A DNA stretch of 64,000 nt, from UHGV virus genome UHGV-0018629; one strand, given 5' to 3'. The stretch is from a virus. Shown one piece after another: positions 4,315-17,702 of the stretch. The stretch's first letter is position 1. Each line of letters begins with the position of its first letter. The notes beneath the pieces were generated by a model. The model ran no database searches and was not told the DNA's origin. It worked only from the letters and a program-made list of their open reading frames with translations. The position numbers were made by a program, and so were the translations under genes.

Positions 4315-4528
4315 ATTTGACTTCCTCGCCAGTACCTAAATCATATTCAACTAAACGAATAGGTTCATGAATACCATATCCCTGAACAGAAATTTCTGTC
4401 GTAGGATAAATTCCATCAATATCACCCATGTTCCACGCTTCGTTAAATTGCTGTTCGCCTGAATTACTAAACCACTCGGCGAAAGCATTTAGCACATCTT
4501 TAGAACCTTCAATAATTATCTTTGCCAT
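4307..4528 (-). CDS. Hypothetical protein
   Basis: 73 aa ORF, ATGA-type overlaps with neighbours. Confidence 0.4.
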   Translation of the reverse strand: MAKIIIEGSKDVLNAFAEWFSNSGEQQFNEAWNMGDIDGIYPTTEISVQGYGIHEPIRLVEYDLGTGEEVKYD

Positions 4529-4890
4529 TACAAACTCTCGGTGAAGGTACGAGCGATAACGTCGCGCTGCTGTTCCGGAGTCAGAGAGTTAAAGCGAACT
4601 GCATAACCGGATACACGGATGGTCAGCTGCGGATATTTTTCCGGATGCTTAACTGCATCTTCCAGAGTTTCACGACGCAGAACGTTAACGTTCAGGTGTT
4701 GACCACCTTCAATTTTAACTGTAGGCTGTTGCTCAATTTCAATTTCACGGGCATGCAAACCGTAGAAAATTTCTGGGTCTACAAAAGAGTCCTCTTTAAA
4801 GGTTTTAGAGACAATAATTCGTGCTTGAATACCATCTTCAAAATAAATAGTACCTTTATGTGTGCCTTCAAGAATTTGATATGCTTTCAT
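4528..4890 (-). CDS. Autonomous glycyl radical cofactor (GrcA/YfiD-like)
   Basis: 120 aa; C-terminal [63 protein letters not shown] is the glycyl-radical module of E. coli YfiD; locally GC-rich. Confidence 0.8.
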
Positions 4891-7107: not shown

Positions 7108-7682
<575 letters not shown>

Positions 7683-13035: not shown

Positions 13036-13590
13036 TTACCGGTAGCGACCCGGTTTCTCATTTGGTATTTCAAATTGTGTAGATTTAGTATCTAATTTTT
13101 TAACTACGGAACTTATGTCATGAAAGAAAAACCATTCGCCATTTATATGGTCCTGATTATAAATGCTGTGCATATATTTTTCAAGTTCTACTGCATCCTG
13201 GGAATATCTAAATGATACTATTTTAAAACTTTTAAACGGTGAAAATGTATTTGCTGTTATAACTCTAACATCGGGTTCTATACTTCTTCCTATTTTATAA
13301 TAATTAGGATTTGTAGTATCTACCATTATGTATACGAAAGCCTGTCGATAGCTTTTTTCTATATCAAATTCATCTTTAAATTTCAAAAGATTTAGGGCGG
13401 CAGTCCTACAAAATACTTTCCATTTTGACAAACGTTTGGCTTCAGTCATAGAAAAGAATTTTTTCTTATCTGTTATTTTAAGAAAAGCAACATTTTCAAT
13501 TAGTTCTTGTGTTATTTCAAAATTACCATGGTATATTAATCCAGCTTTTATAGCCAAATTAATTTGGTCCCAGTCTACATCACTTCTCAT
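13036..13590 (-). CDS. T5orf172/MUG113-like (GIY-YIG-related) domain protein
   Basis: 184 aa; C-terminal half VYIMVDTTNPNYYKIGRS...R...LEKYMH...GEWFF fits the T5orf172 pattern. Confidence 0.5.
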   Translation of the reverse strand: MRSDVDWDQINLAIKAGLIYHGNFEITQELIENVAFLKITDKKKFFSMTEAKRLSKWKVFCRTAALNLLKFKDEFDIEKSYRQAFVYIMVDTTNPNYYKIGRSIEPDVRVITANTFSPFKSFKIVSFRYSQDAVELEKYMHSIYNQDHINGEWFFFHDISSVVKKLDTKSTQFEIPNEKPGRYR

Positions 13591-13688: not shown

Positions 13689-13813
13689 TAATTAGTTCAC
13701 AGCAATACCTACTCCAACAATCAAGATGTCTTCACACGAAATTAAGAGAAGAGTGATCAGTTCAACCCTATAATCGCGTCAAGTAGATATTAATGTGACA
13801 GTTGTCACAAATT
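13689..13813 (-). ncRNA. Candidate small stable RNA between tRNA-Arg and tRNA-Asn
   Basis: 125-nt non-coding spacer in a co-transcribed tRNA cluster; contains hairpin tgtgac/gtcaca; analogous to T4 species 1/2 RNAs by position only. Confidence 0.25.
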
Positions 13814-14245: not shown

Positions 14246-14896
14246 TTATATATTGTTAATTTGATTTAGAATTCTTTTTGCTTGAGTATGACTTACGCCA
14301 ATATGCTTAGCATATTTAGATAATTCGCCACGCTTAGAAAAATCATATAATTTAGAAATTTCTATTCTTCTTTTTCTTTCATCCGCAGAAACTTTTGCTT
14401 CGTTTGCTTTTGCTATTTTACGTTTAGCTTCTTGAGAATGAGTTTTACCAGCAAAGCCATTCTTCATTAATCCATTTGAAGACCATCCTTTTAATTTTCC
14501 GTTAGAATGTGCCTTTTTAACACCCAATGAAATTAATTCACGTTGCTGATCTGTCATAGGATAATTATTTATATGATCCCATCCACCTTCACCTCCAAGT
14601 TTTAAATTATACACATCTGGTCTATTTAAAAACTCTTCTGTGACAATATTTTTCTCGGCTTCAAGCATAGATTCTTTATCATCAAAATACTCTAATATTT
14701 CTTTAGAAAAATTTTCTATACCATATTTATCTTGGGCTCTTTTTAATAATTTACCAGAACCCATATATCCATCATCTAAATTTTCGGTAGAATGCACACC
14801 AATATAAATTTTATTATTAATTTTATTTGTTATTTTATAAAGATAAAAATGCATATCAGTCCCTAATAAAGAACTGAGCGTCTCACGACGAGTCAT
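14246..14896 (-). CDS. segB: GIY-YIG homing endonuclease (SegB-like) inside the tRNA cluster
   Basis: 216 aa; N-terminal GIY-YIG motif YLYKITNKINNKIYIGVHST, basic C-terminal DNA-binding region; lies between tRNA-Gly and tRNA-Ser. Confidence 0.75.
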   Translation of the reverse strand: MTRRETLSSLLGTDMHFYLYKITNKINNKIYIGVHSTENLDDGYMGSGKLLKRAQDKYGIENFSKEILEYFDDKESMLEAEKNIVTEEFLNRPDVYNLKLGGEGGWDHINNYPMTDQQRELISLGVKKAHSNGKLKGWSSNGLMKNGFAGKTHSQEAKRKIAKANEAKVSADERKRRIEISKLYDFSKRGELSKYAKHIGVSHTQAKRILNQINNI

Positions 14897-15066: not shown

Positions 15067-15067
15067 G

Positions 15068-15140
15068 CTGGGAATAAAGGACTCGAACCTTTGCATCCTG
15101 GAATCAAAATCCAGTGCCTTACCAACTTGGCTAATTCCCA
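15068..15140 (-). tRNA. tRNA-Gln (anticodon UUG), no encoded CCA, abuts tRNA-Leu
   Basis: Acceptor tgggaat/attccca, anticodon arm ctgga-ttttgat-tccag; one nt separates it from tRNA-Leu. Confidence 0.7.
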
Positions 15141-15208
15141 ATTATTAACAAAGGCTCTCAAACAAGAACCCTTGATGATAGAGGGTATTAATCAGTGCGA
15201 TATGAGTT

Positions 15209-15235
15209 AATAATAACAAATAATTCTTAAAGCAA
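15209..15235 (-). promoter_or_regulatory. MotA-dependent middle-promoter-like element upstream of the tRNA cluster
   Basis: Minus strand atttGCTTTAag (MotA box) followed 12 nt later by tattat (-10), about 60 nt upstream of tRNA-Gln. Confidence 0.4.
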
Positions 15236-15381
15236 ATTAAACATTTTAACGGTCGGCAAAACAATTTCTTCTTCTATATAAGAGTATTTAACACTCTCAA
15301 CTACACGCAAAAAATCATAATCATAATACTCAGAAGCATTACCTAAAATATTAATAAGTCCTTCAAGCACTTTATTACCAT

Positions 15382-15750
15382 TCACAAAAATAAATCAAAT
15401 ACACGTTCTTCGTCTTCTTCGGATTTATTACCAAGGTCAACTTCTATGTCAAAGACCTTTTTAATGAATTCTGGATAAAGTTGTTCTGAGAACAGTCCTT
15501 CAACCAAGTATTCATAAATAAAAAGCGATTGCTCGCTGAACAAGCCATTACCACAATAACGTTCAGCTTTAGTACTAGAATGTCTGCTTTTAAACTTCTT
15601 TAAAAGATATTGGAATTGTAAGATTTCATGCTCTTCTACGCCAAACAGTGTTTTGGTTTTATAGTTGTCACCATCATTTTCCCAGGTAGTGACATCAATT
15701 ACGTAACCCTGCGGAATTGTAGTACCCAAACAAATATTCATTTTCACCAC
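15382..15750 (-). CDS. Hypothetical protein
   Basis: 122 aa ORF between tRNA cluster and ipI-position gene. Confidence 0.4.
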   Translation of the reverse strand: MVKMNICLGTTIPQGYVIDVTTWENDGDNYKTKTLFGVEEHEILQFQYLLKKFKSRHSSTKAERYCGNGLFSEQSLFIYEYLVEGLFSEQLYPEFIKKVFDIEVDLGNKSEEDEERVFDLFL

Positions 15751-16040
15751 GCTGCATTAATGTAAGTATATTTAATACATTCAAGATCCAAAGGATTCTT
15801 GAAAATATCATATTCAAGAGGACCTTTTTCTGTTTCAATAAAGAAATCAAAATTTACTGTATTAAATTTACGGTCTTCCTTTACTAATTTAACTTGAGAA
15901 GATGAACGGTCAATGTAAACCTTTTCAACTTCAAAATATGTTAAAATACCATAATCATCAATCAAGGATTTAGCTGCTTCTTGATCATATTTATATCCAT
16001 TTTCAATGGATGATACTTTCGCATAAAGAATCATTATCAA
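15744..16040 (-). CDS. Hypothetical protein
   Basis: 98 aa ORF, overlapping stop/start with neighbours. Confidence 0.4.
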   Translation of the reverse strand: MIMILYAKVSSIENGYKYDQEAAKSLIDDYGILTYFEVEKVYIDRSSSQVKLVKEDRKFNTVNFDFFIETEKGPLEYDIFKNPLDLECIKYTYINAAW

Positions 16041-16426
16041 CCTTCATCAACAATAGTGTGCGTATTGGCATTTACAATTTGCCACCAATCAAAGCGATTA
16101 GAACCATAATCTGGTTTGTTTTCATTTTCTTTGATAATGTCACGGAGTTCATCTTCGGTAGCGGCTTTCGCTATTAAATCAGCATATCCACCACGAGGAT
16201 AATAATTATCACCTGCAAAAAGTAAAAAGTTTGGTTTAATGTTATTGAACTCTTCGAGAGTAATAACTTTTCCTGACGGTTGAACAATCTCTACATATTT
16301 ATATCCCAATTTTTGAGCAGCATCTACTGCTTCAAGCAAAGTATCATGAGCCCATCCAATTTGACAACCTGGCTTTTCAGATGGATTCGCCTGATAATCC
16401 GCATACACTTTATACATTCTATTCAC
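16037..16426 (-). CDS. Hypothetical protein
   Basis: 129 aa ORF. Confidence 0.45.
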   Translation of the reverse strand: MNRMYKVYADYQANPSEKPGCQIGWAHDTLLEAVDAAQKLGYKYVEIVQPSGKVITLEEFNNIKPNFLLFAGDNYYPRGGYADLIAKAATEDELRDIIKENENKPDYGSNRFDWWQIVNANTHTIVDEG

Positions 16427-16643
16427 CTTTAGAAATTTTATCCATAACGATAGCGATTAAACCAATTAAAAATGCTACTACAAGTGAAAACACATTTTCT
16501 GCTGTAGTTAATAATCCACATATAAATCCAACAAACATTGAAAAACTAAAAGCAGAAGCAGAAATTGCAATAGCAACATTTCGAATTAATTCACAACGTT
16601 TCATTTTTATTCTCCTCAGTAGTTGATAGGGTAATAGTATCAC
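16419..16643 (-). CDS. Small membrane protein
   Basis: 74 aa; hydrophobic segments AIAISASAFSFSMFVGFICGLL and FSLVVAFLIGLIAIV. Confidence 0.45.
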   Translation of the reverse strand: MILLPYQLLRRIKMKRCELIRNVAIAISASAFSFSMFVGFICGLLTTAENVFSLVVAFLIGLIAIVMDKISKGE

Positions 16644-16687
16644 ACTATTACCCTACTGTAAACAACTTTGTGAAATTATTTTAAATC
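16628..16687 (-). promoter_or_regulatory. Early-promoter-like cassette: 11-bp-stem hairpin plus conserved 30-mer with GTTTAC box
   Basis: Perfect hairpin agggtaatagt-atcac-actattaccct; 30-mer gtaaacaactttgtgaaattattttaaatc identical to 16988..17017. Confidence 0.5.
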
Positions 16688-16933
16688 TTCTAATCGTTTC
16701 TTCATCTTAGAACCATTTTTAGCAATTTCTCCTGCATCGGAGCATAATGCTAAAAGCGCTTTAACTTTAGTTTGATCTCCTTTAAAAGACGAAGGATCGA
16801 CTGCAGCAGCAAGTTCTTTAATACGAGAGAAAAGACGCTCAGCTTCAGCTAAAGCCATTCCAAGCTTTACTTCCATACCGTGGGAAGATTCAGTGATAGT
16901 AGTTTTTGTAGCAAACTCTTTGAAAGTTTTCAT
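16676..16933 (-). CDS. Internal-protein-like small protein (ipI position)
   Basis: 85 aa; N-terminus MKTFKEFATK resembles internal-protein CTS; lies between 57B and tRNAs. Confidence 0.55.
   Translation of the reverse strand: MKTFKEFATKTTITESSHGMEVKLGMALAEAERLFSRIKELAAAVDPSSFKGDQTKVKALLALCSDAGEIAKNGSKMKKRLEDLK

Positions 16934-16953: not shown

Positions 16954-17702
<749 letters not shown>

Follow-up and report, generated by a model that had tools for sequence, protein, structure and literature searches.

The virus genome UHGV-0018629 was analysed over a stretch of 64,000 nucleotides (nt; the window), with the focus on a block of small minus-strand genes located between tRNA-Gln and the gene that occupies the ipI position. 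The stretch belongs to a Tequatrovirus (a T4-like phage), as more than 100 Tequatrovirus genomes match its region 15141-16700 at 94-98% identity (692 matching records overall); over 20 kb no identical record was found, the closest being ~96-98% identical. A sequence-only reading of this DNA had described the block as four minus-strand open reading frames (ORFs) of 122, 98, 129 and 74 amino acids (aa), and these are present at 15382..15750, 15744..16040, 16037..16426 and 16419..16643. The sizes hold for the longest ORFs and not for the genes, since the longest-ORF calls open at GTG or TTG: annotation of the phages AR1 and Sfk20, the positions of Shine-Dalgarno sequences and the sequence itself place the ATG starts at 15741, 16034 (96 aa), 16417 (126 aa) and 16604 (61 aa). 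For the last of these genes, the GTG at 16643 lies upstream of the -10 hexamer (16639-16634) of the cassette promoter described below and is thus excluded from its transcripts. Nor do four ORFs fill the interval, as had been supposed: a fifth ORF (15227..15385) lies outside the interval then assigned, and the real block comprises 15227..16604 plus the promoter/stem-loop cassette upstream. Spacing between the block genes is 1-2 nt. The genes and adjoining features, in the order in which they are transcribed, are:

16419..16604, minus strand: trna.4 orthologue (61 aa; start at 16604; GAGGAG Shine-Dalgarno sequence)
16037..16417, minus strand: trna.3 orthologue (126 aa, acidic)
15744..16034, minus strand: trna.2 orthologue (96 aa, acidic)
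15382..15741, minus strand: phrog_2290 gene (AR1_142-like), N-terminal fragment (119 aa; premature TGA; phrog_2290 profile match)
15386..15390, minus strand: frameshift site in the phrog_2290 gene (T5 run; one base missing relative to AR1 and Sfk20)
15227..15385, minus strand: phrog_2290 gene, C-terminal fragment (52 codons, -1 frame; phrog_2290 profile match)
15067..15140, minus strand: tRNA-Gln (ARAGORN and Rfam), first gene of the co-oriented tRNA cluster entered from the block

The block is almost certainly the syntenic equivalent of T4 trna.4-trna.3-trna.2 together with a phrog_2290 gene, and not an inserted element. In T4 (NC_000866), trna.2, trna.3 and trna.4 (T4p133-135; NP_049746-8) occupy the interval from tRNA-Gln to the ipI locus and agree with the block genes in order, strand and PHROG family (phrog_2023, 1411 and 1692, respectively), and the AR1 annotation lists the block genes as AR1_142, trna.2, trna.3 and trna.4. 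Trna.4 is identical to its T4 counterpart at 61/61 residues (phrog_1692, E = 1.2e-34), and its hydropathy profile displays two hydrophobic segments (residues ~10-33 and ~38-55), so that the small membrane protein noticed from the letters alone is indeed there, in a form of 61 rather than 74 aa. Trna.2 matches T4 Trna.2 at 86/95 residues (phrog_2023, E = 1.5e-47) and differs from it at the C-terminus owing to a deletion in T4. Trna.3, which falls in phrog_1411 as does the T4 gene, is identical to T4 at 77/126 residues, with a divergent N-terminal half (here the AR1/Mosigvirus allele) and a highly conserved C-terminal domain (NFLLFAGDNYYPxGGY...WWQI). The fragments of the phrog_2290 gene together share 96-99% DNA identity with the AR1, Sfk20 and teqhad genes (VOG0448 in teqhad) at the same place; this AR1_142/RB32-type ORF is intact in these relatives, interrupted by a 1-nt deletion here, and absent from T4 and Bas37. 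The block therefore consists of genes already known from T-even phages (T4 trna.2-4 and the AR1/RB32-type gene), and the additions of the present analysis are limited to the frameshift, the recognition of T4 as a deleted state and the tRNA-cluster habit of phrog_2290.

By the pattern of substitutions, all four block genes are real and evolve under purifying selection in the lineage. The ratio of nonsynonymous to synonymous differences per site (pN/pS) is 0-0.28 in every gene comparison except that of trna.2 with Sfk20, where a value of 0.75 arises from just 8 differences; for trna.4, 0 nonsynonymous versus 3-6 synonymous differences were counted against T4 and AR1. A profile search of the window returned no paralogue of Trna.3 or of the phrog_2290 protein. 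Across the compared loci, trna.3 occurs as two deeply divergent N-terminal alleles which cross genus boundaries (loci L003, L008, L009 and L011). The allele present here is 90-92% identical to Mosigvirus alleles and 58% to that of T4, whereas trna.4 displays the reverse affinity (100% to T4, 65-70% to Mosigvirus); these opposite affinities point to allele exchange, with recombination breakpoints within the block.

Such exchange is one of several features that could be taken to favour the origin proposed in the sequence-only reading, namely that the block is a likely accessory insertion, recently acquired as a module between a boundary cassette and a tRNA cluster with a mobile endonuclease. The region is hyperplastic and its gene content is variable among T-even phages, the flanking promoter/stem-loop cassette is repeated and of the type proposed for modular shuffling (PMC4122927), and the tRNA cluster contains a GIY-YIG endonuclease gene (14246..14896). 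The comparison of synteny across T-even genomes, which had been suggested as a check, nevertheless speaks against an insertion, as T4, AR1, Sfk20 and T2 (minus one gene), as well as Mosigvirus and the Salmonella phage STML-198, carry these genes at this position and in this order, so that these relatives offer no empty site. The order 57B ... trna.4-trna.3-trna.2-phrog_2290-tRNA is kept in the Mosigvirus loci L006-L011 and in STML-198 (L010, Gelderlandvirus), and DNA of trna.2-4 is present in 768 phage records (phrog_2290 DNA in 305). Composition is equally unremarkable: the GC content across the block (0.30-0.36) resembles that of the flanks, base composition is that of the phage background, and the block genes have diverged roughly in step with the core genes that flank them. 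The T4 genome, which has no phrog_2290 gene, is explained by a deletion of ~0.5 kb which, in the alignment, removed the last codons of trna.2 as well and left the final ~20 nt of the phrog_2290 gene and the downstream sequence, almost identical to those of this phage; the 3' end of T4 trna.2, and with it the C-terminus of its product, has consequently been remodelled and differs from that found here.

The order conserved over genera, in combination with the deletion remnant in T4, indicates that the block is ancestral in Tevenvirinae and has undergone lineage-specific losses, with T4 as the deleted state; a recent insertion is, on this evidence, extremely improbable. “Accessory” remains apt insofar as the genes can be dispensed with and lost one by one (trna.2-4 are non-essential in T4, T4 is devoid of the phrog_2290 gene, and T2 retains that gene while being devoid of trna.3), and not in the sense of inserted. 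A block conserved in place and with known functions had been named as the outcome that would speak against the proposal; conservation of position was found, whereas no functions are known for these genes. Bas37 is likewise devoid of the phrog_2290 gene, and in both Bas37 and teqhad a putative endonuclease ORF occupies the place of tRNA-Gln. The block thus does not qualify as a candidate novel insertion; the result for this stretch is a correction, and the locus documents T4, the reference phage, as a deleted state.

The promoter-distal gene of the block is broken in this phage. Its N-terminal ORF (122 aa as the longest ORF, 119 aa from the ATG) matches positions 1-115 of the 165 positions of phrog_2290 (E = 6e-48), and the 52-codon ORF at 15227..15385, in another frame, matches positions 117-164 (E = 2e-16); a family profile built here returned E = 1.2e-29 and 5.4e-11 for the two fragments, respectively. 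A whole-length match is reached solely as these two fragments in different frames. By comparison, AR1, Sfk20, T2 and teqhad each possess a single gene of 516 nt, and the full-length homologues measure 171 aa, of which the N-terminal ORF represents the N-terminal 70%. The intact single frame typical of the family (~130-185 aa) is disrupted here by a 1-nt deletion at 15386-15390: in the alignment with AR1 and Sfk20, the relatives read TTATTCTTTGTG and this phage TTATT-TTTGTG, i.e. five T where the relatives have TTCTTT. Of the 25 full-length matches listed from a broadly spread set of phage records, 24 span 516 nt as against 515 nt here, and four metagenome loci of ~98% identity contain an intact ORF of 171-174 aa. 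Exact-pattern scans of IMG/VR for the frameshift site yielded 0 matches to the deleted version and 1 to the intact version. The GTG of the C-terminal fragment overlaps the upstream TGA as GTGA, and this fragment shows zero differences from Sfk20 over 156 nt, which implies either that the lesion is very recent or that it is a sequencing error. The structural model described below places the C-terminal helix, the third beta-strand and the conserved residues Y140, R146 and V147 beyond the frameshift; the 119-aa product should therefore be defective, even though it carries the hairpin motif of the family (TWENDGDNY).

Most likely, judging from the alignments, the split gene is a recent pseudogene, or else the deletion is a sequencing error. 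The latter alternative, whereby an assembly or sequencing fault (such as a T run that was called too short following a C-to-T change) conceals a gene for the intact 171-aa protein, carries a lesser, though appreciable, share of the probability. The missing base falls within a T-rich run (TTATTCTTTG to TTATTTTTG), the downstream fragment is still in perfect frame and identical to Sfk20, and nearly every relative is intact. In the relatives, however, the run is interrupted by a C, hence a simple homopolymer miscount is not at issue, and the large core genes in the window are of full T4-like length (575, 660, 1032, 334, 288, 610, 659, 521 and 427 aa, along with others), from which it follows that the assembly is not generally frameshift-prone; the natural absence of the gene from T4 and Bas37 further argues that its loss is tolerated. 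It is highly improbable that the split gene is still functional, either through a -1 ribosomal slip on UUU UUG or through termination-reinitiation at GUGA to give two assembling fragments. Reading one U of the T5 run twice would restore the ancestral ...DLFFVNG... exactly, stop and GTG overlap as GTGA, and both fragments have kept family-like sequence, but the site contains no canonical X XXY YYZ heptamer, no stimulatory structure was identified downstream, and no Shine-Dalgarno sequence precedes the GTG. Moreover, the C-terminal fragment supplies a core beta-strand (147-156) in the model, making a split assembly speculative, and hundreds of relatives keep the ancestral, uninterrupted frame, so that the site is not one of conserved recoding. 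A programmed frameshift as a conserved feature was rejected on the same ground.

The family to which this gene belongs was delineated by a profile search over 1.84 billion representatives (clusters at 50% identity), which recovered 847 cluster representatives at E <= 1e-3, of which 290 also reached E <= 1e-10; most members are 130-185 aa long. All 81 sampled members fell in phrog_2290 and none (0/81) carried a Pfam domain. Among these 81 diverse members, E21, D23 and D25 of the motif W-E-N-D-G-D are invariant, and G12, W20, N22, G64, N65, Y140, R146 and V147 are nearly so; the motif, in its general form W-E-N-D-G/A-D, is present in the N-terminal fragment of this phage. AlphaFold2 with the family alignment produced a confident model (predicted local distance difference test score 95, predicted template modelling score 0.87), composed of five helices, a C-terminal strand and a beta-hairpin whose tip bears the acidic motif. 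A fold search with this model found no match in the PDB, and in BFVD it found uncharacterised phage proteins alone. The protein is strongly acidic (isoelectric point, pI, 4.5). Identity as a Macro-domain protein (Adpp), an RyR-domain protein (RyDEP) or the ~70-aa aRad1 was rejected, as no such domain or fold is present, and so was identity as a homing endonuclease (GIY-YIG, HNH, LAGLIDADG or PD-(D/E)xK), since no nuclease domain is recognisable.

The genomic neighbourhoods of phrog_2290 members are rich in tRNA genes. A tRNA lies no farther than 4 kb from the gene in 31 of 52 full-length IMG/VR loci (no farther than 500 nt in 19 and 100 nt in 8 of them), and 33/75 metagenome loci have one in the available flanks; every listed tRNA is co-oriented with the phrog_2290 gene. 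These loci span T4-likes of several genera, GAP32-like jumbo phages (355-378 kb) and unrelated contigs, among them L073/L074, where the gene has a tRNA on either side. The distance to the tRNA is 2-30 nt in L105, L118, L132, L146, L155 and L164, and with L073/L074 and L033 included the phrog_2290 gene lies 2-50 nt from a co-oriented tRNA; at such spacing, the phrog_2290 mRNAs must be cut from tRNA precursor transcripts. In L064, a 139-kb tRNA-rich viral contig, a partial phrog_2290 match is followed after ~250 nt by a permuted tmRNA-like gene (ARAGORN; 4396-4713).

In phages outside the T4-like group, the neighbours include Thg1 (L033) and CCA-adding enzymes (L032, L073/74 and L084), while T4-type RNA ligases lie near phrog_2290 in L053 and L079 and an Rnl2-like ligase in L083 (Pfam-confirmed for the tested examples). 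Genes of NAD+ salvage were also encountered, in three viral contigs unrelated to one another and again with Pfam support in the tested examples. A phrog_2290 member stands between Adps/Prs-like and Namat/Nampt-like genes in L081 (2899-6118) and L084 (1516-4533), and another stands beside NMNAT-Nudix, Nampt and a T4-type RNA ligase in L079 (1010-5981). Extra genes are already reported within operons of the NAD+ reconstitution pathway NARP1, i.e. the Macro phosphatase Adpp and the RyR-domain RyDEP glycosidase, and Adpp of Vibrio phage Gary fills the same slot as the phrog_2290 member in L081 and L084; the phrog_2290 family itself was not found among the extra operon genes in the published NARP work examined.

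Considering these neighbourhoods, phrog_2290 may, tentatively, represent an unrecognised class of phage proteins functionally tied to phage tRNA clusters. This proposal draws on a confident fold without a PDB match, on an invariant acidic hairpin near conserved Arg, Ser, Asn and Tyr residues, and on genes wedged between co-oriented tRNAs (often at 2-100 nt) and, in a few lineages, embedded in sets for NAD+ reconstitution or tRNA repair. The protein would probably bind or process a nucleotide- or tRNA-related ligand via the conserved acidic hairpin pocket, a suggestion that derives from gene location: in many unrelated phages the gene lies inside a tRNA cluster, at times with tRNA-repair or NAD+-salvage genes next to it. 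Recurrent embedding between tRNA genes of unrelated phages is also the habit of SegB of T4 and of the F-Tfl enzymes of T5 (PMC2330249), and together with the patchy presence among T-evens (305 versus 768 records) and the invariant E-x-D-x-D motif it might suggest a selfish element aimed at tRNA clusters (a homing endonuclease of a new kind, for instance) in place of a factor that interacts with the host. A strongly acidic protein in which no DNA-binding module is seen fits this description poorly, and the gene keeps a stable position with vertical-looking divergence across Tequatro-, Mosig- and Gelderlandvirus (44% identity in situ), while its absence from T4 reflects an imprecise deletion and no empty homing site; a selfish origin is accordingly rated as very unlikely.

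With respect to expression, the block is bounded upstream by the GTTTAC/hairpin cassette that had been noticed at first reading, and the promoter scan, the hairpin fold and the repeated copies all agree with that description. The regulatory features of the locus are:

16626..16687, minus strand: early-promoter/stem-loop cassette, PeSL-like (-35 GTTTAC at 16662-16657; -10 TACTAT at 16639-16634, preceded by TG)
15210..15234, minus strand: T4-type middle promoter of the tRNA cluster (MotA box TGCTTTA at 15234-15228, 12-nt spacer, -10 TATTAT at 15215-15210)
15988..15995, minus strand: late-promoter-like TATAAATA in trna.2 (pattern search; equivalent annotated in phage SA21RB)
16296..16303, minus strand: late-promoter-like TATAAATA in trna.3 (pattern search; equivalent annotated in SA21RB)

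The cassette is a predicted element of the PeSL (promoter-early/stem-loop) type. Its promoter conforms to the T4 early-promoter consensus in the scan (TTTACA, a 17-nt spacer and TACTAT with TG), and a 14-bp hairpin (16656-16626) spans the -10 hexamer and folds with -21.9 kcal/mol (z = -4.0). The stable stem-loop is accompanied by repetition: AAAGTTGTTTAC occurs in three copies versus 0.83 expected, and near-identical copies of the cassette occur at 7142-7153 and at 16988-16999, the latter upstream of the ipI-position gene. The PeSL concept has been related by its authors to earlier observations at the T-even internal protein (IP) locus (PMC4122927), and the resemblance to those elements (Arbiol 2010, PMC2839356; Comeau 2014, PMC4122927; Repoila 1994, cited there) consists in a repeated unit of ~60 nt with a GTTTAC promoter and a stem-loop, which likewise flanks small genes of the hyperplastic region. 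For the equivalent element, the SA21RB annotation gives a T4 early promoter and, overlapping with it, a terminator. The hairpin here has no U-tract, and a terminator function is not evident.

At the other end of the block, the MotA box of the middle promoter overlaps the stop codon of the phrog_2290 gene, in a stretch that is identical in T4 and for which SA21RB annotates a middle promoter at the equivalent position; a middle promoter just upstream is known to drive the T4 tRNA cluster (PMC2330249). The promoter/terminator scan found no terminator-like site between 15227 and 15140. From this anatomy and the T4 literature, we infer that early transcripts would read through the block into the tRNAs, such that the block would supply the protein genes at the promoter-proximal end of a prereplicative transcription unit which continues into the tRNA cluster.

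The description of the block genes as uncharacterised is upheld. Scans of all block proteins against Pfam, NCBIfam and PADLOC gave nothing significant, PDB sequence searches (with single proteins and with the profiles A2 and A5) gave nothing below E = 0.3, fold searches were without a characterised match, PHROGs offered only families of unknown function, and Rfam reported tRNAs only. Precomputed Pfam accessions on homologues assign Trna.3 to PF26894 and Trna.2 to PF27001 (both recent and outside the Pfam set scanned), and a literature search found no paper naming PF26894 or these PHROG ids. In published T4 screens, trna.2, trna.3 and trna.4 accept transposons at 92-98% of their TA sites, HIDEN-SEQ thus classing them as non-essential, and their knock-down is without fitness effect (“Not Fit”; CRISPRi-ART); the Bas37 homologues of trna.2-4 are non-essential as well. 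The sole hint at the protein level is that T4 Trna.2 was, along with Inh, enriched in a pull-down of the DRT1 defence protein, which its authors took no further (PMC13275509).

Proven counter-defence genes lie in the immediate vicinity, namely IPI (anti-GmrSD), 57B/Acb1 (anti-CBASS) and a Bas37 internal protein which inhibits McrBC. The ipI and 57B/Acb1 genes resemble the block genes in being adjacent, early-expressed, small and dispensable in laboratory hosts, and differ from them in having a known phenotype and in sharing no sequence or fold similarity with the block proteins. On the strength of these neighbours, host takeover or counter-defence would be the likeliest role of the block, although the odds on this functional reading as such lean against it. 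Under it, the block genes would encode small early proteins in the manner of IPI and 57B/Acb1: Trna.4 as a predicted two-helix inner-membrane protein, and Trna.2 and Trna.3 as acidic soluble proteins which probably bind a host or defence partner (the three soluble block proteins have a pI of 4.5-4.7). For phrog_2290, a tRNA- or nucleotide-linked counter-defence function is plausible, with the odds still leaning against it. If true, the protein could act as an enzyme, a sponge or an acidic decoy, protecting or complementing the phage tRNA supply against tRNA-targeting or NAD+-depleting defences. Its genomic habit links the phrog_2290 family to the contest of phages and bacteria over tRNA and NAD+, a field of active research, and provides a testable lead.

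Several considerations weigh against this interpretation. The counter-defence role of the four proteins would be assigned through guilt by association, the T4 and Bas37 screens gave no conditional phenotype for trna.2-4 in the comparisons examined, and T4 does well without the phrog_2290 gene. Further, the tRNA regions of large phages gather small ORFs, due to which the association of phrog_2290 with tRNAs could reflect expression context and not function, and many of the tRNA-adjacent loci belong to T4-like phages with inherited synteny. The NAD+-salvage neighbourhood is confined to about four lineages, and its replication in metagenomes amounts to one locus, in which Nampt is 3 kb away.

Beyond the cassette, the ipI-position gene (16676-16933, minus strand) encodes an 85-aa basic protein with the N-terminal targeting sequence of internal proteins (MKTFKEF...). 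The protein falls in phrog_3499 (“internal head protein”) and agrees with AR1_146 at 100% of residues; it is not T4 IPI, with which it shares 29/76 residues. The gene shares its length (258 nt) and its 57B-adjacent position with bas37_0261. The adjoining bas37_0260 has recently been shown to inhibit McrBC, which suggests that the ipI locus is a swappable palette of injected anti-restriction proteins.

Within the tRNA cluster, the GIY-YIG endonuclease gene mentioned above (14246-14896, minus strand; 216 aa; segD-like in the AR1 annotation) is situated between tRNA-Ser and tRNA-Gly. Its site is that of tRNA-Pro in Sfk20, T2 and T4, and this phage, like AR1, is consequently devoid of tRNA-Pro. 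The 125-nt gap at 13689-13813, which holds tRNA-His in AR1, yielded no such tRNA here. At the far end of the cluster, ~20 nt from tRNA-Arg, lies a 184-aa ORF (13036-13590, minus strand), the C-terminal half of which bears, by eye, a GIY-YIG-like resemblance of the T5orf172/MUG113 type (...YYKIGRS...GEWF).

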